Source of the DNA: an uncultured Alphaproteobacteria bacterium
Lineage (GTDB): Bacteria > Pseudomonadota > Alphaproteobacteria > RF32 > CAG-239
Direction of reading: 5' to 3'
DNA length: 64,000 bases
Assembly (NCBI GenBank): GCA_944390455.1
Contig: CALXPU010000005.1
Coordinates: 9,252-73,251, forward strand
Both the position numbers and the translations under genes were made by a program. The notes under the pieces were generated by a model, which was not told the origin of the DNA, searched no databases, and worked only from the letters and a program-made list of their open reading frames with translations. Position 1 is the stretch's first letter; every line of letters starts with the position of its first letter. Shown piece by piece: positions 5,279-39,012 of the stretch.

Positions 5279-5289
5279 TCTTTTCGCAG

Positions 5290-8348: not shown

Positions 8349-9329
8349 TTAGGTTATTTCTGTTATACCACGAATGTTTCCGTCTCTAACGATTTGTACC
8401 ACATGAAGTTTGCGGCGCATTTCTTCTATTGTTTTTTCTACATCAATATTAGGTTGAGTTCTCATGATACGTTTTACAAAAGCTTCGTAAGCAGCCGTTG
8501 AACTTTCTGCGTGGATTGTTGCTAAGCAGTTGTCGTGTCCGGATCCCATCAACTCCCAGATTGCTCCGGCATTACTCGTTGAAATTTCTCCGCCGATAAT
8601 TGCATCTGGTGTGAAACGCACAATTAAGTCAATTACCTTTGAGTAGTCCATTGTATTGGTTTGCTCTGTACGTGACAGAACAATATGTACTCTATTGGGC
8701 TGTGGTACATTTAATTCTCGAGTATCCTCTACGGTAATAACTCGCTTATGTATATCTAACAGCTTTAACAGGTTATTCAATAGCGTTGTTTTACCGGTAC
8801 CGGTACCGCCGCTTACCAATATATGGTCACCACGTCGCAAAGCCAATAATAAACGTTCATAAGCATCGTCTGGGTCTTTAATGTTCTTTAAAGGGTTTAT
8901 TTCTTTTAATTTTTTTCCTTGCTCTAGTCCATAGTCTCCAAAACCAAATGCGACATCATCGGTATGTAGACGGATTGTTATTGCAATTCCACCAGTTGCT
9001 GCATCATCCAGATCATATTCAATATTTTTTCCAGCGACCCCAGTGAAACGGTGTCCTCCAGGAATTCTCGCATAGACCACAGGAGATCCATTTATCGGAT
9101 CAAATTCTTGGTCATTTAAATTTGCAATAATATGAAGCAAATTTGTCAGATATTCTCTGGTTAATTTAGGATCTTTGTAATTAACCCATGGAAAAGCTCT
9201 TTTTCCACGCAAGCGTAGCCATATATCTCCCGGATGATTTATGGCGACTTCTTCTATATTTTCTTGTTCATACCAGTATGATAAAGGTCTTAATACCGAG
9301 CATAGAACTTCATCCTCTAGTTTTCCCAT
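8349..9329 (-). CDS. virB11: T4SS ATPase VirB11
   Basis: 326 aa. Walker A LVSGGTGTGKTTLLNNLL, Walker B-like HKRVITVEDTREL, and a His box (GSGHDNCLATIHAESS). It is convergent with engB, with only 3 nt between the two stop codons. Confidence 0.85.
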   Translation of the reverse strand: MGKLEDEVLCSVLRPLSYWYEQENIEEVAINHPGDIWLRLRGKRAFPWVNYKDPKLTREYLTNLLHIIANLNDQEFDPINGSPVVYARIPGGHRFTGVAGKNIEYDLDDAATGGIAITIRLHTDDVAFGFGDYGLEQGKKLKEINPLKNIKDPDDAYERLLLALRRGDHILVSGGTGTGKTTLLNNLLKLLDIHKRVITVEDTRELNVPQPNRVHIVLSRTEQTNTMDYSKVIDLIVRFTPDAIIGGEISTSNAGAIWELMGSGHDNCLATIHAESSTAAYEAFVKRIMRTQPNIDVEKTIEEMRRKLHVVQIVRDGNIRGITEIT

Positions 9330-9397
9330 TTATACACTCCCTTTTTGCCTCATTTATTGTAGCAAATATTCTATACTTCGTCAACACGATACATGCA

Positions 9398-12300
9398 TTA
9401 GAATAGTTCAATATCTCCAGAAATTTCTTCTTCGCTCTCCGGAGCTTCTGTTACTGAACCATCTGCAGCCGGCGGAGGAATTGCTCCTACATTTTTGCGT
9501 GGTTGCTGTTGGTTATTTTGGCTATTACCACTATCTAACAAAGGAGTGCCACCATTGTTACTCGTATTGTTTGCATTATTTGTTTGAGCTTGGTTGCCTA
9601 AGATAACCTTCTGACTGCCTTGAGAATTGTTCTTTTCTACTGTAGAGGTTGTGGTTCCACCACCGCCACCATAGAATGTCTCATTTACCAATCCTCCTTC
9701 GCCACCTCCCGGTACGGCTGTAGCTACACCGCGTTGAATATCTTTTGTGCTTCTCAACCATAAATCTTGCATCGGATAAATTATTACTCTTGTACCCGCT
9801 GGAATATACGTTACTGGCTGTATTTGAGATTTACTATCAATAATCTCTTGTAAAATTTGATCCATTTTTTCCATAAATTCTTGTCTTGCATCTGATGCGG
9901 CTTGTTGTTTTGAAGTTTCCACTTCTCCGGTACTATCTTCGTCAGCGGCCATCATATATGTAATTGCTGAAGTTACCATAGTACCAACAATCGGCAATGT
10001 GTATTTCTTCACTAACTGTTCATCAACATAACCCAATGCACCACCACCACGTCCTTGTGCATCGCCAGTTTGAGTTCTTCCCGGTGAAAGTAAAAATGCT
10101 ATACCATCTGGGCGGATAATTCTCTCCCAAGATATGTCTAACTTTACACCACCACTTGTATTATCAAATCTTGCCTCTGTATCTGTTGTTTGCAGACCGC
10201 CAATTATTCTACTACCAGCTGGAATAATTACGTTACGTCCAGAATCACCATAAATATTTCGTTCAACTATCGCTGTTACCGGAGCGGAACCTAAGGATAT
10301 TAATGAACGCGCCAGAACTGCCGGTATTGGTTTATCTCCCGTAATCATATTATCCATATTCACTCTTAATGTTGACACCGTACGTTTCATGCCCCAGTCA
10401 TCTTGCCAACCGGTATATGAAGCTGCATCATATCCTGGTTCTATTTTGGCGGCAACGAGTGTTCTTCTTCGTTCATCTTGAAGTTGTGATAATATTGCAG
10501 CTCGTCTTGGATTATACCTTCCACCAGGGCCAACACCTCCGCCAGGACCGACATTGGTTATTTCATCACCACTGCTATATGGATTTATGGTTGCTCCTGT
10601 TGCTATCTGTTTCCACCAATTTGCATTCATCCCTTTGCTATCTGCTGAGGCACGTTGTTTTTCAAAATCACCAACTTTATTTCCTTCATTATCGAATATT
10701 TCTCCTTTTTCGTTGGCGCTACCAACAACAGCACCTGATTCATCTATTACTTTATTATTACTGTATACATCTCCAATATAACGTCCTCCTGGGGTTACAG
10801 CTATTCCCACAACTTGATAATCTTCTTTAGTTTCAAGAGCGGCTTGCTCTTCCGGACTTAATGTTTCTTCTATCTGTTCTTCTGTTTTGGAAGCAACATT
10901 TTCAATTTCAGTATTTATACTATTTTCTTCTTGATTTTCGTCTTCAATCTCAGTTTCAGATGTTTTTACTTCTGATGCCTCAGGCGTTTTTTCAACAATC
11001 TTTTCCTCTTTGGGTTCCGATGGACGGCGATAGTATTGTAATTTTCCAGCTTGCCCCAATACATCTCCTGAAGGAGAAATTACTCTACCTTCTTCATCTA
11101 TTTTTCCTATTTCTATGTTTTTTATATTTACAACACTACCATCTAGGTTCAAGTGCCCTATTATTTGATTATCTTTGTTCCTTATTTCATAATCTCTTAG
11201 ACCGCGCCCTATTAGATTTTGTTTCTTATCTAAAACAAATCCTTGATAAATAGATCCTTTTATTTCTCCCATTATGCTATATACTCGACCATTCTTGGCG
11301 ATATATCCTATGGTTTTTCCTTCATTATCATATACATATAAATCATACAAAGCATAACCATTGTCGCCTTTTTTAGTTTTCACTTCTCCGGTATGGAGTA
11401 CATAACCTAAATTTTCACCATTATCTGAGACAACACTGCCATCTGGTTTTACGCGCCCTAAATAAATATTATTCGCATCAAAGGCTACCGTGTATTGGAA
11501 AGGTACACCTATGTTCTTTCCATCCTTAGAGCGGATACTGCCGTCTAAATCTATAGTAGCAATTTGTATGCCGGAGGTATCTACAACATTTCCATAAAAA
11601 TTTGTATATCCCAGTATTTTATTATCAAATCCCATTACAGACATATACGGAATTATTTGCCCGATAATTTCTTTTTGAGCATTTCTTACTTTTCCATTGC
11701 TATCTATACACCCTAAATTTTGATTATTATAATTAAGGACATTACCTGATGAATTGCTTACGCCAATTGTATCTCCCCCTTCTCCATTTACTGCACGGGG
11801 TTGTACAACATAACCTATTACTTCTTCTGTTTCATTTACGACCTGCTTATTTGCTAATATCATACCCAAATAAGCATCTTTAGATGTTCTGGCTTCACCA
11901 CTATCTGATACAATACCTATGACTTTGCAATCTGGTGAAATAACAGTCCCCATCTCTAAGGCTTTTCCATATAAAGCTCCCATGTTATCCAGAACATATC
12001 CATTTGAACTTATTTTTCCAATTATTTCCGTTCCCTTGGTTACTTGTCCCGTCAGGCTATTTGCCCCCAGATAATCGCCATTAATACTTACACTGATTGG
12101 AGCATTGCTTGCACGTCCATAATTTTGCGAAAAACGTTCTGATATTCCAACTACATTATTATCCGGTAAGATTTTTGCAAAAACTTTATTTTGTGAATTT
12201 ACCACCAAATTTCCAGAATTAACAACACCTTGCATTTCTCCTTCAAAATTTGTAATAAATTTACTTTCCACCATTTTTCCGAGTAACTTATTATTTTTAT

Positions 12301-13759
12301 CTAAGAATATTCCGTTTCCCGTAAATTTAGCTATTTCATTTAATGAAGGATTTTCGGTTTTGCCTTCGTTGGACGTAAAGGACAATGTCGTGCCATCATC
12401 TGTATAAATTCCACCTTGCTTAATATTTATACCGCTAATATCCCCATTTTCATCAAAGATATATCCATATGGTGATATTTTATAGGCTATTCCATTTGCA
12501 CTCAGGCCTGTATTTATTCCACTTATACCTAAAAACTCATTGTTATTGTTAAAGCACAAATTATCTGCCAGCGTTTTTCCTATTACTCTGCCATTATTAT
12601 CTACTGCATCATTTTGACGTATTGTACCTAAATCTACACCTTCTAGAGAAACTATTTTACCGCCAACTGCAGCATTTGCCTTTAAATTTCCTAAATAATC
12701 AAATACAGGTCCTTCTGAATTTATTATACCTATGACATTGCCTTTTTCATCAATAACTTTACCAGATGCACCGATTGTACCGATTACATTTCTTTTACTT
12801 AAAACTTTGCCATCTGCTGTAATTCTTCCTAAATATTTTCCGTCAAGCGTATTGGCTGTTGCAGCCATATTAACGGTAAATCCGATTGTATTTCCATCTT
12901 TGTTTATTACTCTATTTCCATTTACGGCACGTGCAACAATTGTTCCCTTATTTACAACTTCGCCATTATAGCTAACTACGCCGATATATTGTCCATTATT
13001 ATTAAAAGCATAGCCATTATCTACAACATGCCCTATGGCTTGACCTTCTTTATTGTACACATATCCATTTGCATGGATGTTACCAATAATATTTTTTTTC
13101 AAATCCATCACTTTTCCATCTGGGGCTATGCTTCCCAGATATTTACCTACTGATGATATTACCATTTTGGAGGTAATCAATTTTCCCAGCAATCTAATTT
13201 TATTTTCAGTTCCGGCAAGAGAATATACATAACCACTAGCTGTCACATAGCCTGTATTTTCACCTGAAAGATTGTAGAATTTTCCATCTCCTGATACGCG
13301 ACCCACTACTTGTCCTGCGTCATTGTATACAAGGTTTGGCGATACAGACGCGCCTAGAATATCGTAATTATCATTTACAACCAAACCATTTGGGAGAACT
13401 TTACCGATTAAGCTATCATTTGCAGAAGTAACAGAGCCATCGTTATTAATTTTTCCCAAAATACTGTTATTGTACGAGATAGCTATACCTTGAGGAACAA
13501 CTCCACCGATAAGATTGTTTTCATTATCGTATACAAAACCATCTGCAGTAATGTATCCTATCAGTTCATTGTTGCTGTTGATAACTGAACCGTCTGGTAT
13601 TACTTTTCCAATCAAGTCTCCATTAAAATTAAGTGCGCTAATATCCGCAGCCATTGCACGCAAACTTATGGCTACAAATAAAACAATCAATCTTATTATT
13701 TTGCTCAGTTTTCTTATGCTTTTATGCAAATCAATTCCTCCGGTTTTGCGCAACTTCAT
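9398..13759 (-). CDS. virB10: Giant VirB10/TrbI-family T4SS protein (1453 aa). It has an N-terminal transmembrane anchor, about 860 aa of a degenerate 17-residue tandem repeat, an acidic E/K-rich linker, the TrbI/VirB10 C-terminal domain, and a further 104-aa G/N/Q-rich tail.
   Basis: The C-terminal region (residues ~1085-1349) carries VirB10 hallmarks: RVNMDNMITGDKPIPAVLARSL, IPAGSRIIGG, GRGGGALGYVDEQL and IPAGTRVIIYPMQDL. A transmembrane helix (IIRLIVLFVAISL) sits near the N-terminus. The repeat consensus is x-x-D-G-x-[IV]-V-D-x-x-G-x-[IV]-I-G-x-[AV]. Confidence 0.8.
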   Translation of the reverse strand: MKLRKTGGIDLHKSIRKLSKIIRLIVLFVAISLRAMAADISALNFNGDLIGKVIPDGSVINSNNELIGYITADGFVYDNENNLIGGVVPQGIAISYNNSILGKINNDGSVTSANDSLIGKVLPNGLVVNDNYDILGASVSPNLVYNDAGQVVGRVSGDGKFYNLSGENTGYVTASGYVYSLAGTENKIRLLGKLITSKMVISSVGKYLGSIAPDGKVMDLKKNIIGNIHANGYVYNKEGQAIGHVVDNGYAFNNNGQYIGVVSYNGEVVNKGTIVARAVNGNRVINKDGNTIGFTVNMAATANTLDGKYLGRITADGKVLSKRNVIGTIGASGKVIDEKGNVIGIINSEGPVFDYLGNLKANAAVGGKIVSLEGVDLGTIRQNDAVDNNGRVIGKTLADNLCFNNNNEFLGISGINTGLSANGIAYKISPYGYIFDENGDISGINIKQGGIYTDDGTTLSFTSNEGKTENPSLNEIAKFTGNGIFLDKNNKLLGKMVESKFITNFEGEMQGVVNSGNLVVNSQNKVFAKILPDNNVVGISERFSQNYGRASNAPISVSINGDYLGANSLTGQVTKGTEIIGKISSNGYVLDNMGALYGKALEMGTVISPDCKVIGIVSDSGEARTSKDAYLGMILANKQVVNETEEVIGYVVQPRAVNGEGGDTIGVSNSSGNVLNYNNQNLGCIDSNGKVRNAQKEIIGQIIPYMSVMGFDNKILGYTNFYGNVVDTSGIQIATIDLDGSIRSKDGKNIGVPFQYTVAFDANNIYLGRVKPDGSVVSDNGENLGYVLHTGEVKTKKGDNGYALYDLYVYDNEGKTIGYIAKNGRVYSIMGEIKGSIYQGFVLDKKQNLIGRGLRDYEIRNKDNQIIGHLNLDGSVVNIKNIEIGKIDEEGRVISPSGDVLGQAGKLQYYRRPSEPKEEKIVEKTPEASEVKTSETEIEDENQEENSINTEIENVASKTEEQIEETLSPEEQAALETKEDYQVVGIAVTPGGRYIGDVYSNNKVIDESGAVVGSANEKGEIFDNEGNKVGDFEKQRASADSKGMNANWWKQIATGATINPYSSGDEITNVGPGGGVGPGGRYNPRRAAILSQLQDERRRTLVAAKIEPGYDAASYTGWQDDWGMKRTVSTLRVNMDNMITGDKPIPAVLARSLISLGSAPVTAIVERNIYGDSGRNVIIPAGSRIIGGLQTTDTEARFDNTSGGVKLDISWERIIRPDGIAFLLSPGRTQTGDAQGRGGGALGYVDEQLVKKYTLPIVGTMVTSAITYMMAADEDSTGEVETSKQQAASDARQEFMEKMDQILQEIIDSKSQIQPVTYIPAGTRVIIYPMQDLWLRSTKDIQRGVATAVPGGGEGGLVNETFYGGGGGTTTSTVEKNNSQGSQKVILGNQAQTNNANNTSNNGGTPLLDSGNSQNNQQQPRKNVGAIPPPAADGSVTEAPESEEEISGDIELF

Positions 13760-16700
13760 CTAATACATATCCGGAAACCTGATTTCGGATATTTACATAT
13801 GAGCCATTACTCTTCAAATATCCGATTTTCCCGTTTGTTAGACTATATATTGTTCCGTTTGAGGCTAGTCTTCCTAAAAACTTTCCATCATTCCCTAATA
13901 TATTAGCACCAATTTTATAGCTATGTCCCAATATTTTTCCATTGTTATCTACAACTAAATTTGATGATATAATTTTTCCGATTACAGATCTTTCTTTATT
14001 CAGCACTTTTCCTTCTGCATTTACAAAGCCGACAACTTGATCTTCCTCATTGATTACAATATCATCTTCAACAAGTTCACCTATTAAAAAGCCCTTATCA
14101 TTAACGGCTTGTCCAGAATTTAAAATATGGCCTATTTTAGTATTTTCCGTAGAAATGATGCTACCATCTGCAACAACTTGTCCTATTATTTTTCCTGAAT
14201 AATTGAGAACAACACCTCTTTTTACAACATTATAGTTTTTATTTGATGTTCCGCCAGGAAGGATTGTGGTGACAATGTTATCTTCATCGTCAATAATATC
14301 ACCAAGTGCATTTAAGTATCCTCTTGTCTTTCCTTGAATATCTATAACAAAGTCTTCTTTTATAACTTCACCTATTATTTGTTTGTTTTCATCCAGAATA
14401 TGCCCTTCTGAACCGACATTACCACTGACGTTTCCATCTACATCTATTACTTTACCACTTTTGCTCACATAACCTAAATATGAACCGTCATAGCCAATAC
14501 CAACGCCTGTTTTTACCAAACCGCCTTTGTATTCTCCTTGTTTATCAAACATTCTCCCTTTGCCGTCAATATACCCTAATTCGGTTCCCAAAACGTCGAT
14601 TACTTTTCCGGCGTCATTAGCTATGCCAATATAATTTCCGTTAAAGTCAACCACGGTGCCTTTATTAATTATTTTTCCGGCTTTCTTAGAATAGAATGAG
14701 TTGCCTTCGTATACAAATTTATCAACAGCTATTCCTTTTTGATTATAGACATAACCATCCGCAAATAAATGCCCTATCGTATTTCCATTTGCATCTACGA
14801 CAATGTTCTTTTCTGGCAGTAACACGCCTTTTACTTCCAGTTTAGGATTTACTAAGTATTTATTTAGCAAGACCTTAGTATTTGGAATGACGGTTTGATT
14901 ATCATATTTGAATGTTGATAAATTATTTATGAAATCGCCATTTACACCGAAAGCCTGAGTTTTATCCATAACCTGACCTATGATGAAGCCATCTTTATTC
15001 AATATTTCTCCATCTAAGTTTGCGCATCCGATTGCCTGTAAACCATTTTTGACAGTACCGTCTTGATTTAGGGGGCCCATCATCTCCCCGCTATAATATA
15101 ATCCATAGCTCGGTTCAAAGACTTTTCCTATTAGTTTTCCGTCTTGGTTTAATACCCCACCATCTGGATTTACACATCCAACATAGCCACCTTCGTCATT
15201 GCGGACAAAGCCGTCATATCCAGCTTTACCAATGATATTACATTTTTCATCTCTTACGATGCCTACTTTTGCTATATCGCCAACATAGTTACCATCTTTG
15301 TCAACAATTGTGCGGTCAAACATCATTCTATATTCTGTTTCTTTTCCATCTTTTTTTACTTTAGCATCTCTGTCTACATATCCCAGATGTTGACAGCCCC
15401 ATCCTACAGCCATTCCTCCAATCACCGTTTTGCCTATTATTTTTTCTCCTTCTATGGATTTTATTAGTGAATTTGGCAAAATTTTACCGACGATTTCTTC
15501 TTTGTTATTAATAACTTCACCTTTGTTATTAATTATTCCCAGACTATAACCGGCAGGAGAAATTGCTATCATGTCTTTTTTAACAACAGTTCCTATTCTT
15601 ACGCCTCGAGAACTGATAACATTACCATTCTCATCAATGTAACCTATAACGATACCATTTGCGTTATAAACTTTTCCGTCCTCTCCGATATACCCTATCA
15701 CATTTCCATTTTCATCTACGGCTAAATTTGAGTAATCGCCGACTTGACCTACAATTTTGCCATTTTCATCTACGGTAAAATCAACCATTCCTCCTACTTT
15801 ACCGATTATGTTTCCTTTACTATCCTTTACACTACCATCTTCTTGAACAGTACCTATTACATTGCCATTTAAATCTCTGGCAATTCCGTTTTCATCAACA
15901 TAACCGATAACATTTCCAGCTTCATCTAATATAGCTTTTCTGGAAATAACTTTTAAGTTTCCGTCTCCATTTTCAGCCAATCGGCCAATAACTTCGCCAT
16001 TGCTTCCATAAACATTTCCATCTTCAGCAACAAATCCTATGACTTTTCCATTATTGCCAATGACTTTTCCTTTGTCGTCCACATAGCCAATAACATTACC
16101 ATCTTTATCTAATACTACTTTGGCAAAATCACCGGCCTTTCCGATTATATTACCATTTATATCGTTAATACTTCCATCTTCCCCTAAATATCCGAGAAGT
16201 TTTCCATCAAAATCGCGGACTGTGCCATCTTCATCCACATATCCTATAACATTGCCATCTTTATCATAGGCTAATTGACGATTTATGTCTGCTTTGCCGA
16301 GAACTTCTCCGGTTACGCCGATGATATTTCCATTTTCATCCATAAAACCAATTAGTTCACCATTTTCTCCATAAACTTTTCCGTCGTCTTCAACATAACC
16401 GATAACATTACCATCTTTATCCAATGCTAATGTCTTTGTATCTCCGGTTTTACCAATTTCTCTTCCATAAGCGTCTATAATGCGCCCATCTTTAGTGGCT
16501 TTTCCCAGCAAATTACCCTTAAAATCGTAGACATTTCCGTCTTTATCAACGTAACCGATTACTTTGCCATTTTTATCGTATGCCAATGTTCCCTTTTTAT
16601 CTACATTACCGATGACTTCATTAGTGTTATTTAAAATATTACCATTTTCATCAACATAACCGATAACATTGCCTTTGAAATCTTTCACTGTTCCGTCTTT

Positions 16701-19700
16701 ATCTACAAATCCTATAACTTTTCCATTTTTATCGTAAGCTAAATTTTTTGCTCCGCCAACTTTACCAATAATTTTACCATTTTTATCAAGAACATTACCT
16801 TTTTCATCAACTTTTCCGACAATGTTACCGTTTTCATCAATTACATTGCCGTTTTCATCAACATAACCGATAATATTGCCGTCTTTATCATATGCCAGCT
16901 TTACACTTTTGCAGGCTGTACAAATAACTTCACCTACAGCTTTTACTTCATTATCTTTGGTTACATAACCAATTAATTTATTATCTGAACTAAAAGCAAA
17001 ATTATTTTCTTTCATATAGCCGATAACATTATTTCCATTGTCTCTAAGCGTTTTCTTATCTGCGTCTAACTTGCCAATTACATTTTCTTTGGCACCCAAA
17101 ACATCGCCTTTTATATCGACAATACCAATAATTTTATCTTCGTCGCCTTTAACATAGTTTTGCGCATCAATATAGCCAATAACATTTCCTTCTGATTTTT
17201 GGACTACATTTAATAATTCCCCTGTTGTACCAATCAGTAGTCCTTTATTATCAACCACATCTCCATTTTTGTTAGAACCTAAAGTTTTGCCACTAAAGTT
17301 TTTCACAACGTTGTTCTTATCTAAATAACCGATTACAAGCCCTTGCTTATTTTTTATAATTTTTTTTCTAACGCAAGTACGACCAATAATTTTGTCACCA
17401 GCCTTAATTACGTTTCCATTTTTATCTATAAAACCGACTAATTTGCCATTTTCATCTACTACACGACCATTTTCTACATAACCGATAATGTTGCCGTTTT
17501 TATCTGTTGCTACTTGTCTATATTCTCCGGCTTTTCCGATGACTCTTCCGTTTTTATCCAGAATACTTCCGTCTTCAGCCATTCTTCCTATCAGATTTCC
17601 TTTAAAATCTTTAACTGTTCCATCTGGTGTAACATAGCCGATGACTTTACCATTTTTATCATATGCTAATCTTTTGAAGTTCCCTGCAACACCTAACTTT
17701 TCACCGCTTGAAGCAATTATATTTCCGTTTTTATCAACGACACCTATAATTTTTCCATCACAATTTATGACGCGTTTTTTCTCGTCTATATAGCCAATAA
17801 ACACACCTTGATTGTTGAAGGCAAGCTCTTTTATGCCACCGACTTTTCCAATTATTTTGCCATCTTTATCAACGACATTTCCTGACGAATCTTTTTTACC
17901 AATAACGCTTCCGCCACAACCTTTAACAGTACCATCCGTATCAACATAACCAATAAATTTACCGTTTTTATCGTATGCAATTTCTCTTGAAGTTCCGGCT
18001 TTTCCGATGATTTTTCCATTTGTTCCTATTATTTGCCCTTTGTCATCTACATAACCTAAAAGAGCGCCATTTTTACCGATGACACGACCTTTATCATCAA
18101 CAATACCAATAACATTACCCTTTTTATCAAAGGCAACCGTTGCATAGTTACCAGCCTTTCCGATTTTTTGGCCATTTTTACCAATAATTTCCCCTTTATC
18201 GTTTACTTTTCCGATAACATTGCCTTCAAAATCAATAACATTTCCGTCATCATCTATATAACCTATAGGCTTTCCATCTTTTCCTAAGGCTATTCTTTTT
18301 TTGTTGCCATTTGTATCAGCCTGTTTGGTACTTATGATATTCCCGTTTTTATCAACATTACCAATATGTTTGCCATTGTGATCAAAAACACGACCTTGCT
18401 CATCTACATATCCAATGACTTTTCCATTTTTATCCAAAGCTAATTTGGCATACGCTCCAGCCTTTCCGATGATTTTTCCGTTTTTATCTACAATATTACC
18501 ATCTTTATCTACTTTTCCGATAACATTTCCCTTAAAATCTTTAACCGTGCCATCTTTGTCAACGTAACCGATAACATTGCCATCTTTATCATACGCCAAT
18601 CTTCTGCTTACGCCAACTTTTCCAATAACATTTGATTTATTTTTATCTTGATCAAATTTAACAACTTTTCCGTTTTCATCTATATAACCTATAGCCTTAC
18701 CATCTTTATCATAGACAATCTTGCGACTTTCTCCATTTGTACCTATTTTCTCTTTAGCTATTTTGTATACGTTACCGTTTTCATCAACATATCCAACAAC
18801 ATTTCCGTCTTGGTCAACAACACTGTTATCTGGCATAACAACGCCTAAAACATTGCCATTTTCGTCAACAACAATATTTCCTGATGATGTCACCTTTCCG
18901 ATAACATTGCCATTTTCATCGACAACCTCTCCGTTTTCATTTAATCGTCCAATGATTTTTTTAGGGTCATTAATATCTACAACTGTTCCATCTGGTAATG
19001 CACGACCAATAATTTTGCCATTTTTATCATATACAAATCCAGCCTCAACGGCTTTTCCAATGATTTCACCGTTGCTATTTACTATCGTTCCATCAGGCAG
19101 AGCCTTGCCAATAACTTCTCCTTGTAAATCAACAACAGTTCCGTCTGTTTTAACATAGCCAATAATATTGCCATCTTTATCGTATGCCAATTTCATATTT
19201 TGGGCAACGCCGATGATATTACCATCCGAATCAACAATCAATCCGTCTTCATTAACTTTACCGATAATGTTACCGTCTTTGTCATGAACATTTCCGGCTT
19301 CATCAATGTAACCTATAATTTCACCATTAGGCCCTATAGCTAGACGATGAGCCCCGATCCCCCCATCATCACCAATGGAGCAACCACTTCCAGCACTACA
19401 ATTTTGTTGGTTGTCTTCTGGGTATACTGCACTGCCTCTAATGCTTACTTCCTCAGATTTGGCACTTGATTTATCTAATCTGGTTTCATACCATATTATT
19501 TTGAAATTATTTTGAACATTCCCCGGTAAGTGTGGCGCCCAAGTTATTAAAACATTGCACGTTTCATCACCTCGTAAATCACGGTTTCTACATTTATCTC
19601 TAAAATCAAAACCATCTTCCGTTTCTTCTACAAGCTCAACCCTTTCTATATGTATGCTTTCACTACCATCCGTTCCTATCGTTAAAACGCTTTGATTTTG

Positions 19701-20009
19701 AACATCAACCCCCAGAACAAATTTGTTCATATTAATTTGTGCTGGCGTTACTTTTATTGGCTTGCTCTTTCCTTCACCTGTTGTTGCTTCGGTATCTATA
19801 AATATTGGACCTGCATCTGCACCTATTTCAGGTAAGATATTCTGATTTTCCACAAAATCAGGCGCATCCTCTTCTGGGTTATAAACTTCTGTATCAGAGG
19901 ATATTACAAGCAAACCAAACAAAAAGAAACAGAATGCGATAATTCCTATCGTAAAAATTATCTTTCGAGTTTTTCTCTCATATTCTTCAAACCGAGTATT
20001 TTCACTCAT
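13731..20009 (-). CDS. 2092-aa bitopic repeat protein between virB9 and virB10. It has an N-terminal transmembrane segment and is then made almost entirely of tandem 17-residue 'DxDGxVIGYVDENGNV'-type repeats. It resembles the N-terminal half of the adjacent VirB10 but has no TrbI domain.
   Basis: A single hydrophobic helix (IIFTIGIIAFCFFLFGLLVI) lies near the N-terminus. Period-17 repeats such as LPDGTVVDENGNVIGKA and DKDGNVIGYVDENGNVI run for well over 100 units. The repeats at residues ~230-1330 are very regular; the more C-terminal ones are degenerate. The gene overlaps the virB10 start by 29 nt and the virB9 stop by 4 nt. Confidence 0.7.
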   Translation of the reverse strand: MSENTRFEEYERKTRKIIFTIGIIAFCFFLFGLLVISSDTEVYNPEEDAPDFVENQNILPEIGADAGPIFIDTEATTGEGKSKPIKVTPAQINMNKFVLGVDVQNQSVLTIGTDGSESIHIERVELVEETEDGFDFRDKCRNRDLRGDETCNVLITWAPHLPGNVQNNFKIIWYETRLDKSSAKSEEVSIRGSAVYPEDNQQNCSAGSGCSIGDDGGIGAHRLAIGPNGEIIGYIDEAGNVHDKDGNIIGKVNEDGLIVDSDGNIIGVAQNMKLAYDKDGNIIGYVKTDGTVVDLQGEVIGKALPDGTIVNSNGEIIGKAVEAGFVYDKNGKIIGRALPDGTVVDINDPKKIIGRLNENGEVVDENGNVIGKVTSSGNIVVDENGNVLGVVMPDNSVVDQDGNVVGYVDENGNVYKIAKEKIGTNGESRKIVYDKDGKAIGYIDENGKVVKFDQDKNKSNVIGKVGVSRRLAYDKDGNVIGYVDKDGTVKDFKGNVIGKVDKDGNIVDKNGKIIGKAGAYAKLALDKNGKVIGYVDEQGRVFDHNGKHIGNVDKNGNIISTKQADTNGNKKRIALGKDGKPIGYIDDDGNVIDFEGNVIGKVNDKGEIIGKNGQKIGKAGNYATVAFDKKGNVIGIVDDKGRVIGKNGALLGYVDDKGQIIGTNGKIIGKAGTSREIAYDKNGKFIGYVDTDGTVKGCGGSVIGKKDSSGNVVDKDGKIIGKVGGIKELAFNNQGVFIGYIDEKKRVINCDGKIIGVVDKNGNIIASSGEKLGVAGNFKRLAYDKNGKVIGYVTPDGTVKDFKGNLIGRMAEDGSILDKNGRVIGKAGEYRQVATDKNGNIIGYVENGRVVDENGKLVGFIDKNGNVIKAGDKIIGRTCVRKKIIKNKQGLVIGYLDKNNVVKNFSGKTLGSNKNGDVVDNKGLLIGTTGELLNVVQKSEGNVIGYIDAQNYVKGDEDKIIGIVDIKGDVLGAKENVIGKLDADKKTLRDNGNNVIGYMKENNFAFSSDNKLIGYVTKDNEVKAVGEVICTACKSVKLAYDKDGNIIGYVDENGNVIDENGNIVGKVDEKGNVLDKNGKIIGKVGGAKNLAYDKNGKVIGFVDKDGTVKDFKGNVIGYVDENGNILNNTNEVIGNVDKKGTLAYDKNGKVIGYVDKDGNVYDFKGNLLGKATKDGRIIDAYGREIGKTGDTKTLALDKDGNVIGYVEDDGKVYGENGELIGFMDENGNIIGVTGEVLGKADINRQLAYDKDGNVIGYVDEDGTVRDFDGKLLGYLGEDGSINDINGNIIGKAGDFAKVVLDKDGNVIGYVDDKGKVIGNNGKVIGFVAEDGNVYGSNGEVIGRLAENGDGNLKVISRKAILDEAGNVIGYVDENGIARDLNGNVIGTVQEDGSVKDSKGNIIGKVGGMVDFTVDENGKIVGQVGDYSNLAVDENGNVIGYIGEDGKVYNANGIVIGYIDENGNVISSRGVRIGTVVKKDMIAISPAGYSLGIINNKGEVINNKEEIVGKILPNSLIKSIEGEKIIGKTVIGGMAVGWGCQHLGYVDRDAKVKKDGKETEYRMMFDRTIVDKDGNYVGDIAKVGIVRDEKCNIIGKAGYDGFVRNDEGGYVGCVNPDGGVLNQDGKLIGKVFEPSYGLYYSGEMMGPLNQDGTVKNGLQAIGCANLDGEILNKDGFIIGQVMDKTQAFGVNGDFINNLSTFKYDNQTVIPNTKVLLNKYLVNPKLEVKGVLLPEKNIVVDANGNTIGHLFADGYVYNQKGIAVDKFVYEGNSFYSKKAGKIINKGTVVDFNGNYIGIANDAGKVIDVLGTELGYIDGKGRMFDKQGEYKGGLVKTGVGIGYDGSYLGYVSKSGKVIDVDGNVSGNVGSEGHILDENKQIIGEVIKEDFVIDIQGKTRGYLNALGDIIDDEDNIVTTILPGGTSNKNYNVVKRGVVLNYSGKIIGQVVADGSIISTENTKIGHILNSGQAVNDKGFLIGELVEDDIVINEEDQVVGFVNAEGKVLNKERSVIGKIISSNLVVDNNGKILGHSYKIGANILGNDGKFLGRLASNGTIYSLTNGKIGYLKSNGSYVNIRNQVSGYVLDEVAQNRRN

Positions 20010-21973
20010 TGTATTCTGACCACACTACAAAATATACCATTACGCCCTAGTTGACTGCAAATATTATCTCCTTCTTCCAGAGATTTAACCGGTCCAACAC
20101 GCAAATGAAAAACTTCTTTTCCTTGTCCGTCTGCCGGTGTATCTACGGAATAGAATGGTTGATATTTGCCTAGTGTTGCTGAATAATTCTTTGAAATATC
20201 ATTCCATAATTTCTCTAAATTATTTACATCTTTATCCGTTCCTAACTCTATAGAAATATTACTTTCATCGGTATTTGCGAATACTTTTCCTTCTCTAAAT
20301 TCTTTGAGCAAAGCTTCTGTTTCAGCTGAAACAACGGAATTATGCTTTTCTAAATCATTATCTTTAGGCGTAATCAACACCGGACTAGAGTTATTACTTG
20401 AGTTACCGATTTTTGACGCACCATTAGGTATCTGTATATTTTGTTGTGTATCTTTTTGATACGTAACAGATGCATTTGGCTTATCATTATATTGAGGCGT
20501 TACAAATTCAGCACCATTTGCTTTTATATCATACTGCCCCGTTAGATTTTCTTGCTTTTGTTCAACTTCTGGAGCTGCAACAAAAGTTTTTGCTTTTGGT
20601 AAGGTATCTAATAATGTTGTTTCCTCACCAGCGGCTTGTCCTTGAGAAGTTCCTTTGGAAGCGGCATTATTTGTTTCTGCAACTACAGGTTTAACTTGAG
20701 CACCATTTGTTGTACCTTTCTTTCCACTAATCATATCCTCATAACTCAATCCATTAGAATCTGTTGATGAAGAGTTGTCTTTAGTTTCGGCTGGCCCAAA
20801 GAATGAGCTTATGCCAAAGAAAGAATCTTTTTGATTATTGTTATTCTCCGCCTTCTTTCCATAGACGTCCTCATAGTCTTCAGAATTTTGTTCTTCATTT
20901 TCCGTAGTCTTTTGATAACGTTTTGCTTGTAAATCCCATTCATTTGTTTTTGCATAAACAGTATTTTCCAAACCATCCGAATCTGCTCGTCTTAGTTTTA
21001 AGCATACAATTCTTTTACCGCTACGAAGAACCATATCGCCCATACCTTCTACGATTATCAAACGGTTGTTTGGACCTGCCGTTCTAAAACCTACCGGAGT
21101 TTCTGAGCGCTCTACGATTAAGGTTACTATCGGTCTTTGGTTAGATGTAAGAGCTTTATCTCCTAAATCAATATATGTAAAAATATTATCTCTCCAGACG
21201 CGCTCCGGTGCTATTACTATATCATCAGGATTTGGAACATATACCTCAATATCAAAACGAAACTTTGTTGGATCTACCGGTATTTTTTCAATCCAGTCTT
21301 CCTTTTGTAAATCTCTTGTAAAGGTCGCATCTGCACTGCTGCCATTTTGGCCATAACTATTTGCATTTATATGTCCACCGCTATTATTGCTACCAATTAT
21401 TGCTGAACCATTTGCGTTTTGACGTCTTTTAACAACTTCTATATCAATAATAGCGTTGGTTATTCTATCTGTATTAACGGTTTCACTTTGAACATAAAAA
21501 ACATATTTATTACCCGAACGTCCGAAAACAATCATATTGGTATCCACACCAACAAATTGAGAAGAATCCGGATAAACCATTAAGCTTGAAGGGCCTTGAA
21601 TTTCTGCATTAAAAGATTGCCCATCACCGATATATACATTCTCTATAACTTCCCAATTTGGGAAATTAATCAATGTATACATTCCTTCTCTAACTCTTAC
21701 TGGTAAAACCAACTCAGGCGTCCAATAGTATTTTGTATATCCAGGACGCGTCTGTCCCTCTCCCATATGCTGCAAAGGATCTTTCCACGCGCTTTGCATC
21801 ATTCCAAGAGATCCTACACCCCCTAAATAATTCAAATTTGTGGCAGCGTAGTTACCTTGACTTTGGTCTGCATTCTGATCAAGATTATCTTTTGTTACTT
21901 GTGCTTGTACGGCAGGAACCAAAACACCTGCTGATATTAATATTACGGATAAAATGTTTGTAATTTTCATCAT
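20006..21973 (-). CDS. virB9: T4SS outer-membrane core protein VirB9, extended to 655 aa. It has a signal peptide, a VirB9 domain of about 300 aa, a N/Q/S/T-rich low-complexity spacer of about 280 aa, and a C-terminal SPOR-like domain.
   Basis: Signal peptide MMKITNILSVILISAGVLVPAVQAQ. The gene sits between virB8 and virB10. The C-terminal ~75 aa (ISIELGTDKDVNNLEKLWNDISKNY...GKEVFHLRVGPVKSLEEGDNICSQLGRNGIFCSVV) fit the two-lobed SPOR pattern (xVQlGaF...lyRVrvGPf..a...c..L...g..c.vv). Confidence 0.7.
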   Translation of the reverse strand: MMKITNILSVILISAGVLVPAVQAQVTKDNLDQNADQSQGNYAATNLNYLGGVGSLGMMQSAWKDPLQHMGEGQTRPGYTKYYWTPELVLPVRVREGMYTLINFPNWEVIENVYIGDGQSFNAEIQGPSSLMVYPDSSQFVGVDTNMIVFGRSGNKYVFYVQSETVNTDRITNAIIDIEVVKRRQNANGSAIIGSNNSGGHINANSYGQNGSSADATFTRDLQKEDWIEKIPVDPTKFRFDIEVYVPNPDDIVIAPERVWRDNIFTYIDLGDKALTSNQRPIVTLIVERSETPVGFRTAGPNNRLIIVEGMGDMVLRSGKRIVCLKLRRADSDGLENTVYAKTNEWDLQAKRYQKTTENEEQNSEDYEDVYGKKAENNNNQKDSFFGISSFFGPAETKDNSSSTDSNGLSYEDMISGKKGTTNGAQVKPVVAETNNAASKGTSQGQAAGEETTLLDTLPKAKTFVAAPEVEQKQENLTGQYDIKANGAEFVTPQYNDKPNASVTYQKDTQQNIQIPNGASKIGNSSNNSSPVLITPKDNDLEKHNSVVSAETEALLKEFREGKVFANTDESNISIELGTDKDVNNLEKLWNDISKNYSATLGKYQPFYSVDTPADGQGKEVFHLRVGPVKSLEEGDNICSQLGRNGIFCSVVRIQ

Positions 21974-21992
21974 ATAAATATCCTACACTCTA

Positions 21993-22751
21993 TTAATTTG
22001 TTTTCCGTTCAACCTGCTTATAATCAAGCACAGTAAATCCTAATGGATTTTTTAATCTTTCGCCAAAAGTTACCCTTTTTGCTCTGTATTGTATTTTTAT
22101 TGAAGCCAACCATACACTTAATCTAGGTGTTTCATATTCTGGCATCATATCTTCTACTCTGAACTCCACTTGCCACCAAGTTTCGCCGCGCTCACCACCA
22201 ACTTCTGTTACAGATGATATTTTAATATTTCTGGTTATATTGTGATTACGAATTAAATCTATTGCCTTATCTGCAAAAGTTTCTCTAAACTGGCTATATA
22301 CCCCAGGAGAAGACATTTCTTGTATTGTACTTCCAGCACCCCAACGTTGTTCCATCTCTTCCACATTATTTACAAATGTATTTCGTAGGAGGACGTACTC
22401 TCTTACAAAGATTTCTGTCAGATATTTATATTCATATATATTCTTAACAGGATGGATTGTATATATCTGGTCTTTTTTTTCTGCAAAACTAAACAAATAT
22501 GGCTCTATGCGATATAATGGCATAATAGCAAACACTACGTATGTCAGTATTAAATTGCAACACAGGCTAACGGCAAAAATGATAGCAAAAGCACGCGCGG
22601 TCCACAAGTACCTTTTTTCTGTTGCATTTTCCACAACCACATCTGCACTTCCTTTTTTTTGAGGACGCGCCATTCTGGGACGAGGCTTTTCTCCCCCTTG
22701 TCCCTCCAATAGTAGTTTTTTAGTATTTTCAGAAGATACTTGTTCGACCAT
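21993..22751 (-). CDS. virB8: T4SS protein VirB8 (paralog 2)
   Basis: 252 aa bitopic protein with a transmembrane segment (AFAIIFAVSLCCNLILTYVVFAI) and the C-terminal VirB8 motif NPLGFTVLDYK. Confidence 0.7.
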   Translation of the reverse strand: MVEQVSSENTKKLLLEGQGGEKPRPRMARPQKKGSADVVVENATEKRYLWTARAFAIIFAVSLCCNLILTYVVFAIMPLYRIEPYLFSFAEKKDQIYTIHPVKNIYEYKYLTEIFVREYVLLRNTFVNNVEEMEQRWGAGSTIQEMSSPGVYSQFRETFADKAIDLIRNHNITRNIKISSVTEVGGERGETWWQVEFRVEDMMPEYETPRLSVWLASIKIQYRAKRVTFGERLKNPLGFTVLDYKQVERKTN

Positions 22752-22762
22752 CTCTTTCCACC

Positions 22763-23854: not shown

Positions 23855-23874
23855 TCTTTCTTTTTATTCCTCGC

Positions 23875-37240: not shown

Positions 37241-37520
37241 ATTTGTGCCCTTTCACTTTGTATAAATTCTGTGGCACCACATTTGTTTGCCCAAAGGCTT
37301 GTATCATTCCTGATAAGTGAGGATCTTTTGCTCCAAGCGCAACAACAATTAAATGCCCCAGTACAATACTTATAATAAATACAAGGGGGTTTACATCTCC
37401 CATTCCGATTGCCATGAACATAAAAGGTATTTGCAATCCAGCATTTAACGCTGTCGGCAATACCGGCCCCCAGAATAATTTGGGAGGATTAGCTACCGCT
37501 TTTAATATTATATCTTTCAT
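37230..37520 (-). CDS. virB3: T4SS protein VirB3
   Basis: 96 aa. The N-terminus has the VirB3 pattern (KAVANPPKLFWGPVLPTALNAGLQIPFMFMAI), with two predicted transmembrane helices. Located directly upstream of virB4. Confidence 0.75.
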   Translation of the reverse strand: MKDIILKAVANPPKLFWGPVLPTALNAGLQIPFMFMAIGMGDVNPLVFIISIVLGHLIVVALGAKDPHLSGMIQAFGQTNVVPQNLYKVKGHKFEP

Positions 37521-37598
37521 GGCTTAACCCCTCTGTTGTCATATATACATATTAAGCCTGAATATCTTAAAATTTATTAAATTTATATTTTTTTATTT

Positions 37599-37955
37599 CT
37601 AGCTGCCCAGGCTACTATGTGATACTGTATTCATATAAGTATCTTTGAATTCTGTTTGTAATTTTGCGTGACTTCCTGTGAAGTAGTCAATAATCGCACC
37701 AGTTGCAGAGAGCATAAACAAGCTGATAAAAATATATCCTAGGTGCTTAAAATTGATTTTTCCACTTATCGCTAAAAATGTAAACATAACGATACCAAAA
37801 CAAGATATTGCGTATGCAAATACACGCAACTGTGATGCGAAAGATATCGTTTTTTGCTTTAGCGACGCAAATACTCCTGCCGCCATTGCATCACCACTCA
37901 TTAATACAATTACAGCGATACACATTATGCAGAAAAACATACTTTTTTTCGTCAT
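37599..37955 (-). CDS. virB2: VirB2/TrbC-family pilin (paralog 3 of 3 in transcription order)
   Basis: 118 aa with a signal peptide (...DAMAAGVF) and two hydrophobic helices, the VirB2 architecture. There is an 11-nt gap to the preceding paralog. Confidence 0.6.
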   Translation of the reverse strand: MTKKSMFFCIMCIAVIVLMSGDAMAAGVFASLKQKTISFASQLRVFAYAISCFGIVMFTFLAISGKINFKHLGYIFISLFMLSATGAIIDYFTGSHAKLQTEFKDTYMNTVSHSSLGS

Positions 37956-37966
37956 CTCATCATCTC

Positions 37967-38290
37967 CTATGTTCCCAATGCGATATCTTCAGCGATTGAA
38001 GATGCTCCATCCGGCGCAAACATCGCAACAAACCCTGCGCATAAGCTAATTACAACCAGACCCAATATAATTGCGGTTAGCCACTTCCAGTTAATATTTC
38101 CGAAAAATCCGCCAATACATACTGCAATTATACCTACAGCTGAGGCTGGGTAAATAATTTCTCGTAATCCCGAGAAAATTTCTTGTCCTGACGAGATTAA
38201 AGAGCCAAAAGCACCGGCAGCATTTGCCGCTGAAGGTGCCAGCAAAATCAACATCAACAATGCGTAGAAAATTTTATTATCTCTTTGCAT
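37967..38290 (-). CDS. virB2: VirB2/TrbC-family pilin (paralog 2)
   Basis: 107 aa with a signal peptide (...SAANAAGAFGSL) and two transmembrane helices (IIAVCIGGFFG, ILGLVVISLCAGFVAMF). Confidence 0.65.
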   Translation of the reverse strand: MQRDNKIFYALLMLILLAPSAANAAGAFGSLISSGQEIFSGLREIIYPASAVGIIAVCIGGFFGNINWKWLTAIILGLVVISLCAGFVAMFAPDGASSIAEDIALGT

Positions 38291-38402
38291 CTCAAAATCT
38301 CCCCTATAATTATTTGTATTATATCACAAATTCATAAAAATATCTAGAAAAAAATGCGCAGCATCACTTACGATATCATGTTGTTTTTACTGTGTTTATT
38401 TG

Positions 38403-38428
38403 CTTGTAACAAAAACTTCACACTCTAG
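38403..38428 (-). promoter_or_regulatory. Conserved 23-bp motif (plus strand cttgtaacaaaaacttcacactc) upstream of virB2 paralog 2. It is a putative promoter or operator; the minus strand gives a -35-like TTGTTA, 17 nt, then TAAAAA.
   Basis: A near-identical copy sits at 39016..39038, upstream of virB2 paralog 1. This is a direct sequence comparison. Confidence 0.45.
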
Positions 38429-38502
38429 ATTTTTCTGTTTTTTCTTTTTTATTATCTCTCGTGTTTTTCTTACATGCTTTCGTTTATCAAAAATAATTTT
38501 TT

Positions 38503-38535
38503 AAATAAAAAAAAGGAGCGCTTTTCGCGCTCCCC
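38503..38535 (-). terminator. Rho-independent terminator downstream of the first virB2 paralog
   Basis: The minus strand reads GGAGCGC-GAAAA-GCGCTCC followed by a run of about 10 T. On the plus strand this is stem 38515..38521, loop 38522..38526, stem 38527..38533, preceded by A10 at 38505..38514. Confidence 0.75.
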
Positions 38536-38555
38536 TTTTCTTTATTTGTTGGTTA

Positions 38556-38906
38556 TTATACACCTGTACCAGAGTTAACAAATGTATCGCCTGTTTGACC
38601 AGAAGTAATGTTACCACCAGTAGCGTAGTTAACAATCGCACCTGCAGCAGCCAAAATAGCCAAACCTACAGCCAAACCAGCAAACCATGTCCATTTTACT
38701 TTTCCGAAAATAGCTTGGAACGCAATACCGATTAAACCGAACGCACCAACTACGAAAATAATGGTTTTAATATGTACGAACAATTGTAAAGCTTTGTCCA
38801 TACCTGTTTGCATAACACTGTCTTCTGCAAATGAAGCATTTGCAAAGAGCACTGTAAACACAAATGCTAAGGAGCAAAGTGTAAACATCTTTTTCAAGTT
38901 TTTCAT
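38556..38906 (-). CDS. virB2: VirB2/TrbC-family pilin (paralog 1, first in the operon). The start is taken at MKNLKKMF...; the ORF-track start at 38933 is 9 codons upstream.
   Basis: Signal peptide (...FANASFAEDS) plus two transmembrane helices (IIFVVGAFGLIGIAFQAIF, FAGLAVGLAILAAAGAIV). It is followed by a strong intrinsic terminator. Confidence 0.65.
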   Translation of the reverse strand: MKNLKKMFTLCSLAFVFTVLFANASFAEDSVMQTGMDKALQLFVHIKTIIFVVGAFGLIGIAFQAIFGKVKWTWFAGLAVGLAILAAAGAIVNYATGGNITSGQTGDTFVNSGTGV

Positions 38907-39012
38907 ATCAGTTCTCCTAAATTCATTATACATTAATTACTTTACAGCAAATTTAAAAAAATTTCAAGCCTTTTGACGGCCACCATCTTTGCGCTAACAT
39001 ATTGTTTTAATT

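Follow-up and report, generated by a model that had tools for sequence, protein, structure and literature searches.

A chromosomal VirB-type type IV secretion locus with β-flower repeat proteins in uncultured gut Alphaproteobacteria

The Trw system of Bartonella is a plasmid-derived type IV secretion system (T4SS) that has lost VirD4, has multiplied VirB2 and VirB5, and serves in adhesion to host cells. It is close kin of R388 Trw, and its amplified units are trwL (VirB2) and trwJ-trwI-trwH (VirB5-VirB6-VirB7). The rvh system of Rickettsiales, which is spread over scattered islands, has several giant VirB6 paralogs, duplicated VirB4 and VirB9, and no VirB5. The bacteria-killing T4SS of Xanthomonas has a large VirB7 with an N0 domain and a VirD4 recognizing XVIPCD effectors. 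Here we describe a 30.6 kb VirB-type T4SS locus from an uncultured alphaproteobacterium (RF32, CAG-239 in GTDB). It lies in a stretch of 64,000 nucleotides (nt) of assembly GCA_944390455.1 (contig CALXPU010000005.1, positions 9,252 to 73,251 of the forward strand), the whole of which is called the window below. A preliminary description of this DNA had interpreted the locus as a variant VirB-type T4SS with five VirB5 paralogs and CagY-like repeats. The first part of this interpretation stands, whereas the five VirB5 proteins and the CagY-like repeats do not. In the literature searched, we found no description of a T4SS of RF32/CAG-239 or of such a locus.

The nearest described relatives are operons on alphaproteobacterial plasmids. 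When VirB4 was searched against 72,556 plasmids, the best matches were to Microvirga pMVF16-3 (36% identity), Sphingosinicella (34%), Erythrobacter aureus (34%), and three "Ca. Paracaedimonas" plasmids (30%). The other plasmid VirB4 proteins listed were at most 27% identical, with 22-24% for the classical Agrobacterium, Xylella, Campylobacter, and enterobacterial plasmids. In Microvirga and Erythrobacter, a MobA/MobL relaxase precedes an operon encoding VirB2, B3, B4, a VirB5-position protein, one or two unknown proteins, VirB7, B8, B9, B10, B11, and VirD4, with a VirB2-to-VirD4 span of about 13-15 kb; the Paracaedimonas plasmid is typed MOBQ. The operons of Microvirga VF16 pMVF16-3, Erythrobacter aureus YH-07, and "Ca. 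Paracaedimonas acanthamoebae" encode VirB11 and VirB9 proteins about 42% and about 36-38% identical to those of the locus, respectively. They also share with it the order VirB2, B3, B4, B5-position, B7, B8, B9, B10, B11 and a lipoprotein with a PCACI motif. However, they have one pilin, one VirB8, a VirB10 of 529-590 amino acids (aa), no β-flower protein, and no 1793-aa protein. In addition, the two closest plasmid operons carry the MobA/MobL relaxase and VirD4, neither of which is present in the window locus.

As the most economical reading, we propose that the locus descends from a P-type conjugation apparatus of Alphaproteobacteria, that it has become fixed in the chromosome and is inherited vertically, and that it has been converted to a non-conjugative surface organelle in a clade of uncultured gut bacteria. 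We regard this proposal as about evenly balanced between right and wrong. Since the locus and its surveyed surroundings contain no DNA-transfer genes, and about 3,000 β-hairpin residues and fast-evolving secreted proteins have been gained, the product is probably an organelle for cell contact or protein export.

Gene content and transcription units

The locus is an unbroken array of genes on the minus strand in the order VirB2 (three copies), VirB3, VirB4, five signal-peptide proteins, VirB8, VirB7, VirB8, VirB9, a 2092-aa protein, VirB10, and VirB11 (window 8349-38933; Table 1). Intergenic spacing ranges from -29 to +146 nt, the sole exception being 265 nt downstream of the first pilin gene. 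Protein families were assigned using Pfam and NCBIfam profiles, as well as BLAST against plasmid T4SS proteins. The open reading frame map and the profile hits bear out several points of the preliminary description, namely that the VirB-type T4SS is contiguous on the minus strand and about three times as large as a canonical one, that VirB9 and VirB10 are enlarged, and that a repeat gene of 6.3 kb has been inserted. The energizing and channel core (VirB3, VirB4, two VirB8, VirB7, VirB9, VirB10, and VirB11) is intact. Of the components characteristic of P-type (VirB/MPF-T-like) systems, VirB4, the VirB7-VirB9-VirB10 outer-membrane core, VirB2, VirB3, VirB8, and VirB11 are present. The TIGR00929 score of VirB4 lies under the trusted cut-off of 643 bits, indicating a divergent VirB4. 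Rfam and tRNA scans of the window gave no matches.

Table 1. Features of the T4SS locus and its surroundings, in window coordinates (TM, transmembrane helix)
Feature	Position	Strand	Evidence or remarks
virB11 ATPase, 326 aa	8349-9329	-	TIGR02788 160 bits
virB10, 1453 aa	9398-13759	-	N-terminal TM; β-flower repeats; TrbI domain 98 bits
TrbI/VirB10 domain of virB10	9755-10345	-	aa 1139-1335
2092-aa repeat protein	13731-20009	-	PF21785 E 7e-142; N-terminal anchor, TM aa 17-35
virB9, 655 aa	20006-21973	-	CagX/VirB9 domain aa 80-325 (54 bits)
SPOR domain of virB9	20015-20233	-	aa 581-653
virB8b	21993-22751	-	Pfam VirB8 67.8 bits; Bartonella and Brucella VirB8 matched in PDB
virB7-like lipoprotein, 62 aa	22763-22951	-	lipobox LAAC; conserved SPCACI motif
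virB8a	23096-23854	-	Pfam VirB8 49 bits
1793-aa secreted protein	23875-29256	-	acidic, 29 cysteines; no family match, orthologues included
458-aa secreted protein	29238-30614	-	no Pfam match
232-aa secreted protein	30607-31305	-	all-helical; no Pfam or PDB match
727-aa secreted protein, paralog of 387-aa protein	31305-33488	-	VirB5-like N-terminus and long helical extension
387-aa secreted protein, VirB5 position	33550-34713	-	VirB5-like N-terminal module (hhalign 96.9%; TrwJ E 0.0017)
sigma-70 consensus	34752-34780	-	TTGACA, 17-nt spacer, TATAAT
virB4 ATPase, 815 aa	34793-37240	-	TIGR00929 381 bits; Pfam CagE_TrbE_VirB; TrwK in PDB 164 bits
virB3, 96 aa	37230-37520	-	two TM; BLAST to annotated plasmid VirB3, E 5e-8
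virB2c	37599-37955	-	TrbC 20.7 bits; signal peptide and two TM, pilin-like
virB2b	37967-38290	-	TrbC 33.3 bits
23-nt motif, copy 2	38403-38425	-	exact-copy count; upstream of virB2b
putative intrinsic terminator	38507-38535	-	hairpin and T8, after virB2a
virB2a (pilin)	38556-38933	-	TrbC 40.6 bits; signal peptide and two TM
23-nt motif, copy 1	39024-39046	-	exact-copy count; upstream of virB2a
type IVb pilus cluster	39197-50639	transcribed away from T4SS	complete-looking; profile matches
PilT-like ATPase of pilus cluster	49692-50639	-	
DsbA-like thioredoxin gene	53012-53725		about 14 kb from the locus

Three VirB2 proteins had been proposed earlier, and all three can be retained. Two of them score above the Pfam TrbC/VirB2 cut-off of 27.9 bits, and the third, which falls under it, is identified by its layout and by BLAST to VirB2 of Microvirga pMVF16-3 (E 1e-8), to which it is the best match of the three pilins. 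In public gene calls, the start of virB2a is placed at 38906, giving a protein of 116 aa. The virB3 and virB4 genes overlap by 11 nt. The proposal of a duplicated VirB8 flanking a VirB7-like lipoprotein also proved correct, since both VirB8 proteins match the Pfam family and the 62-aa lipoprotein is homologous to the small lipoproteins found at the VirB7 position of two plasmid systems (E about 4e-10 to 7e-10). The C-terminal SPOR domain of VirB9, a peptidoglycan-binding domain, is matched by the C-terminus of the Erythrobacter plasmid VirB9. The locus has no VirB1-type lytic transglycosylase.

The first pilin gene, virB2a, appears to constitute its own transcription unit. The 265-nt gap downstream of it contains a predicted intrinsic terminator, which was read from the sequence as the strong hairpin GGGGAGCGC-GAAAA-GCGCTCC followed by T8, and whose stem was also found in the scan. 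The 23-nt motif GAGTGTGAAGTTTTTGTTACAAG is present upstream of virB2a and again upstream of virB2b, where the long operon starts. There are two exact copies of it in the window against zero expected by chance, and close relatives keep one or two. The motif may be a shared promoter or operator. Together, the terminator and the duplicated motif suggest that the pilin unit is highly expressed and terminated on its own, and that the long operon is regulated jointly with it. The counts of the promoter and terminator scans over the window were not higher than the shuffled expectation. The 79-nt gap between virB4 and the gene of the 387-aa protein contains a perfect sigma-70 consensus, which could act as an internal promoter for the secreted-protein genes.

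β-Flower arrays and secreted proteins

The 2092-aa protein and VirB10 contain long arrays of β-flower repeats (families PF21785/PF21784), with scores of 464 and 200 bits, respectively, against a cut-off of 38. The 2092-aa protein has at least 86 hairpin units of about 17 aa, some of which are grouped into 52-aa triplets, and the repeat unit is a hairpin with a [DNEQ]xxG tip motif. An AlphaFold2 model of these repeats shows hairpins throughout, with a predicted local distance difference test score (pLDDT) of 77.6 and no solved structural relative. In VirB10, the repeats (about 1000 aa; PF21785 E 7e-60) fill the first ~1080 aa, followed by the TrbI/VirB10 domain. The gene of the 2092-aa protein overlaps virB9 by 4 nt and virB10 by 29 nt. 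VirB10 orthologues of 1374-1767 aa occur in more than 100 protein clusters, and β-flower repeats are combined with TrbI in all of the 120 best VirB10 cluster representatives. Previously, the β-flower fold has been described in single ~100-aa domains of unknown function that have no solved relative, and associations with lipid or wall binding are mentioned in the family description (Durairaj et al. 2023, PMC10584680). The match of the locus proteins to this fold is strong, but they contain arrays of 1,000-1,900 aa, which are fused to or co-encoded with VirB10. No publication linking VirB10 with the β-flower was found in the literature searched.

The DNA encoding the repeats shows periods of 51 and 156 nt with an identity of just 60-79%, which makes both collapse of the repeats in assembly and a CagY-style recombination unlikely. 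CagY recombination is driven by long near-identical DNA repeats, and such repeats are absent from the repeat genes of the locus. Thus, the repeats that the preliminary description had called CagY-like are degenerate at the DNA level and consist of ~17-aa β-flower hairpins. The same description had envisaged that the large genes might be artefacts of collapsed repeats. Although their coding sequence is highly repetitive, we consider the likelihood of such an error in assembly or gene calling to be negligible. The exact 2092-aa protein is present on 14 contigs from public assemblies (Logan, ENA), the identical 1453-aa VirB10 recurs on many contigs, and the exact VirB4 is indexed in 66 blocks of the sequence collection. 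Orthologues of similar length are encoded in many species, and the low identity of the DNA repeats likewise argues against this explanation.

The five genes between virB4 and the first virB8 gene encode proteins of 387, 727, 232, 458, and 1793 aa, all of which have signal peptides and no further transmembrane helices. The earlier assignment of all five as VirB5 paralogs can be maintained at most for the 387- and 727-aa proteins, and there for an N-terminal module only. These two proteins are demonstrable paralogs (BLAST E 1e-26, hhalign 99%). A profile built from 26 orthologues of the 387-aa protein was compared with five plasmid VirB5-position proteins, two of which pass Pfam PF07996, and matched them at 96.9% over about 73 N-terminal columns (85% after rough trimming of the signal peptides). 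The same family profile matched R388 TrwJ with an E-value of 0.0017. The likeness is confined to the N-terminal ~70 residues, the C-terminal parts being unrelated, and none of the locus proteins matches PF07996 (VirB5) in Pfam.

For the 232-, 458-, and 1793-aa proteins, profile comparisons with VirB5 revealed no supportable link. The 458-aa family reached just 48% in hhalign and 0.2% after trimming, and hhalign showed no relation to the plasmid non-VirB5 proteins found at the same position. An apparent N-terminal homology of the 232- and 458-aa proteins was also rejected, as its score of 96% dropped to 18% after trimming, a crude procedure that also cut the PVxD motif of some sequences. A search of the PDB with the 232-aa family profile gave no match. 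The AlphaFold model of this protein (27-sequence alignment) had a pLDDT of 53 and a predicted template modelling score of 0.29, and Foldseek against the PDB found nothing under E = 1. Pfam searches with the distant-group orthologues of the secreted proteins (see below) gave no informative domain. By these comparisons, the locus would encode two VirB5-like proteins and three secreted proteins without an assigned family.

The signal peptides of all five proteins would be compatible with a two-step export similar to that of the Ptl system. In this scheme, the 232-, 458-, and 1793-aa proteins would leave the cytoplasm via Sec and then cross the outer membrane through the T4SS as toxins or adhesins. 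Such a scheme would also accommodate the lack of a local coupling protein, because Ptl is likewise without VirD4, as well as the cysteine-rich and acidic, extracellular-like character of the 1793-aa protein. However, neither the secreted proteins nor their orthologues contain a toxin or enzyme domain, and the Bordetella Ptl system keeps VirB6 and is without VirB5, which is the opposite of the locus. We therefore regard Ptl-like export as unlikely. A DsbA-like thioredoxin gene is located further along the window (Table 1); it may be relevant to the 1793-aa protein with its 29 cysteines, or may be a coincidence.

Chromosomal site, relatives and missing components

On its left side, the locus is flanked by dnaA (cut by the window edge), dnaN, recF, gpsA, and then yidC-yihA abutting virB11 (window 1-8345). 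The right flank contains a type IVb pilus cluster, a PilT-like ATPase, and ATP synthase F0 genes. The minus-strand coding of the T4SS results in a strong negative GC skew over it. The pilus cluster encodes a TcpQ-domain protein, an R64 PilN-family secretin, PilO, an assembly ATPase, a PilC/GspF-family membrane protein in the PilR position, and a bundlin-like pilin.

A scan limited to one genome per species identified at least 58 species-level loci with VirB4 proteins 64-98% identical to that of the window. All are carried by Alphaproteobacteria that were assembled from human, mouse, ruminant, and chicken gut metagenomes and that we take to be members of the GTDB order RF32; named examples are "Proteobacteria bacterium CAG:495", "Ca. 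Scatocola", and "Acetobacter sp. 46_36". This origin agrees with the earlier suggestion of an AT-rich, host-associated alphaproteobacterium. One locus-bearing contig (L038, CAVBCV010000002.1) was deposited as 'Lachnospiraceae bacterium', which is probably a binning or naming error.

The loci were divided into a near group (VirB4 at least 82% identical to the window) and a distant group (about 70%). In all near-group loci with enough flank, the pilus cluster is followed by B2a, B2b, B2c, B3, B4, and the genes of the 387-, 727-, 232-, 458-, and 1793-aa proteins. The distant group retains this frame with an unchanged VirB8-VirB7-VirB8-VirB9 order and a variable number of secreted genes. It also keeps the distal half of the locus, including the β-flower protein (1146-1353 aa) and the β-flower VirB10 (1569-1767 aa). 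The pilus cluster adjoins the T4SS in all related loci with enough flank, in the near and distant groups alike. In several distant-group loci (L032, L033, L034, L036, L037, L042, L045, and L059), the third VirB2-like gene is huge (850-1781 aa). The product of the L034 gene (6720-9524) has a segment of about 370 aa rich in Ala, Lys, and Glu ahead of the hydrophobic core and about 500 aa behind it, and has no Pfam match; a pilin with such extensions is unusual.

The arrangement VirB11, yihA-yidC-yidD-rnpA-rpmH ... recF-dnaN-dnaA is common to three near-group species (the window and two others), and the β-flower proteins of the two other species have 2197 and 2619 aa. Since these three species have the locus at the same site despite saturated synonymous divergence, its position must have been stable for a long time, which points to vertical inheritance rather than a recent mobile element. 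This result also bears on the possibility that the locus is a DNA-handling machine, either an integrated conjugative element with a distant relaxase or a ComB-like DNA uptake system. In favour of this possibility, the plasmid operons closest to it are transfer operons on plasmids that carry a relaxase, and type IVb pili of the R64 type are found alongside conjugation systems. The C-terminal domain of VirB10 also fits the ComB10 model slightly better than the VirB10 model, with both scores far under the cut-offs. On the other hand, the locus lies at the same origin-proximal site in the three species with no relaxase or VirD4 nearby. The sole integrase-family gene of the window is found about 15 kb past the end of the T4SS, among housekeeping genes, and ComB systems are without VirB11 and VirB5. 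A role in DNA handling thus seems very unlikely.

The proteins encoded by the locus change at very different rates. Among 33 near-group species, the median identity to the window is 91% for VirB4, 83% for VirB3, and 58-69% for the pilins. It falls to 43% for the 232-aa protein, 39% for the 458-aa, 38% for the 727-aa, 33% for the 1793-aa, and 30% for the 387-aa protein, whose gene is the fastest-evolving of the locus. Relative to the closest species, the nonsynonymous divergence (dN) was 0.013 for VirB4 and 0.185 for the 387-aa protein, and the synonymous divergence (dS) was saturated even in this comparison. Overall, amino-acid change in the pilins and the five signal-peptide proteins is about 5 to 15 times the VirB4 rate. 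This pattern fits exposed proteins that are weakly constrained or host-facing. As dN/dS is below 1 throughout and dS is saturated, positive selection is not claimed.

The absence of local VirB6 and VirD4 noted in the preliminary description extends to the related loci. Searches by tblastn with VirD4, relaxase, VirB6, and VirB1 queries from related or classical plasmids gave no hit in the window and 66 related loci (up to ±10 kb; 1.28 Mb in total). No polytopic VirB6 (TrbL, PF04610) was found in the locus or window, and the only polytopic membrane proteins of the window are YidC, the PilC/GspF-family pilus protein, and AtpB, none of them in the T4SS locus. The Microvirga and Erythrobacter operons are also without a recognizable TrbL/VirB6, and the Paracaedimonas plasmid has a weak one (23 bits). 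At the VirB6 position, Microvirga pMVF16-3 (L063) and the Erythrobacter aureus plasmid (L064) contain either a three-helix protein of 228 aa together with a secreted one of 428 aa, or a soluble protein of 453 aa. This T4SS subfamily may therefore manage without a canonical VirB6.

An exhaustive search of 1.8 billion cluster representatives identified VirB4 relatives with 49, 40, 39, and 38% identity, and 510 with E <1e-30. The 49% and 40% relatives are chromosomal and are located among housekeeping genes, with their T4SS genes split or scattered. Of these nearest relatives outside the clade (L074 and L075, 49%; L076, 40%), one has a lone VirB3-VirB4 pair between a Mur ligase and a penicillin-binding protein, with a VirB11-like ATPase standing alone and an ankyrin-repeat protein nearby. 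The other split relative has VirB3-B4-(60 aa)-B8-B9 followed by housekeeping genes. These split loci recall the scattered layout of Rickettsiales. The relatives form a continuum, and the locus is thus a branch within a larger T4SS lineage of Alphaproteobacteria that has been little described and has members on both plasmids and chromosomes.

The scattered relatives make it plausible that the locus belongs to a complete effector-translocating T4SS, similar to rvh or the Brucella and Bartonella VirB systems. VirD4, VirB6, and the effectors would then be encoded elsewhere, and the secreted proteins of the operon would be pilus or accessory parts. This explanation would also suit the retention of both the VirB4 and VirB11 ATPases, the ankyrin-repeat protein near one of the split loci, and the VirB8 duplication, which recalls rvh. 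However, VirD4 and VirB6 are missing from the 64-kb window and from the 66 related loci, and the locus is compact rather than scattered. Since the closest conjugative relatives likewise have no recognizable VirB6 in the operon, its absence may be a trait of the subfamily instead of a sign of scattering. Overall, we consider an effector translocator, the main alternative to our proposal, to be a real possibility that falls well short of probable.

Proposed organelle and comparison with known systems

In the proposed non-conjugative organelle, virB2a would probably supply the bulk pilus subunit, in keeping with its own terminator and the 23-nt motif that it has in common with the operon start. 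The 387- and 727-aa proteins probably dock through their VirB5-type N-terminal module to the tip or stalk of the pilus and would present their variable C-terminal parts there. The 2092-aa protein would be co-translated with VirB10 and, like it, anchored in the inner membrane; each such pair would contribute about 3,000 residues of hairpin arrays to the periplasm. There, the β-flower arrays may enlarge or brace the core complex in the manner proposed for the repeat regions of CagY and DotG, and the complex would be fastened to peptidoglycan by the SPOR tail of VirB9. Together with the adjacent type IVb pilus, the T4SS would mediate contact with host or other cells, or surface delivery of the Sec-exported proteins of the operon, with no transfer of DNA.

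Several points weigh against this proposal. The function is deduced from gene content only, and the position of the β-flower arrays and their stoichiometry are part of the model. The N-terminus of VirB10 could be a cleavable signal peptide instead of an anchor, and no fold is assigned to three of the five secreted proteins. VirD4 and VirB6 could be encoded elsewhere in these genomes of about 2 Mb, and the nearest chromosomal VirB4 relatives (49% and 40%) have scattered T4SS genes. Finally, with dN/dS <1 in every gene and saturated dS, the data demonstrate fast evolution and not diversifying selection.

A bolder version of the proposal is that the locus represents a new architectural class of T4SS-derived organelle without VirB6 or a coupling protein. 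It would have a β-flower scaffold spanning the envelope and VirB5-module proteins with fast-evolving heads, and would work with the type IVb pilus as the main colonization or contact device of a widespread, uncultured gut order. We hold this version tentatively and consider it doubtful; if true, it would give the β-flower fold its first functional context. The core parts all belong to known families, so the locus is not a new kind of system. The combination of its features is undescribed in the literature searched: chromosomal fixation across the clade, constant linkage to a type IVb pilus, no local VirB6, VirD4, or relaxase, two VirB8 proteins, a SPOR-tailed VirB9, a β-flower VirB10 with a separate partner of about 2,000 aa, and proteins that have the N-terminal module of VirB5 only.

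Among the papers found, those naming these gut Alphaproteobacteria report their abundance alone. A 30-kb machine kept at a constant site with a pilus cluster in many species is likely to be central to their life in the gut. For T4SS biology, the locus would be a natural case of a repurposed conjugation apparatus with an apparently VirB6-free operon, as well as a third, independent route to a repeat-inflated VirB10. In addition, it places the orphan β-flower fold within a defined machine.

The preliminary description had seen rvh and Trw flavours in the locus. These are useful as analogies but do not indicate membership, because the nearest relatives are alphaproteobacterial plasmid operons and chromosomal split loci. 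Similar to Bartonella Trw, the locus combines several VirB2 (three) and VirB5-like proteins (two) with no local VirD4, a likeness that is best regarded as a functional analogy. It differs from Trw in having no VirB6, a single VirB7, giant repeat proteins, and two VirB8, and its VirB4 matches R388 TrwK only distantly (164 bits) and is 22-24% identical to classical plasmid VirB4 proteins. With rvh, it shares a chromosomal location, vertical inheritance, host-associated alphaproteobacterial carriers, and a duplicated VirB8. However, it is one compact operon with VirB5-like genes, a single VirB4 and VirB9, and no VirB6. The Xanthomonas system is set apart by the size of VirB7, which has just 62 aa in the locus, and by its VirD4, which has no local counterpart here.

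The design resembles that of Helicobacter pylori CagY and Legionella DotG, where repeats of great length precede a C-terminal domain of the VirB10 family and the core complex is enlarged. The repeats of CagY and DotG are of types other than the β-flower, and none of the Cag-specific families was matched in the locus, which has only the generic CagX and CagE. In contrast to CagY and DotG, the locus has degenerate DNA encoding β-flower hairpins of about 17 aa, and a separate 2092-aa repeat protein beside VirB10.

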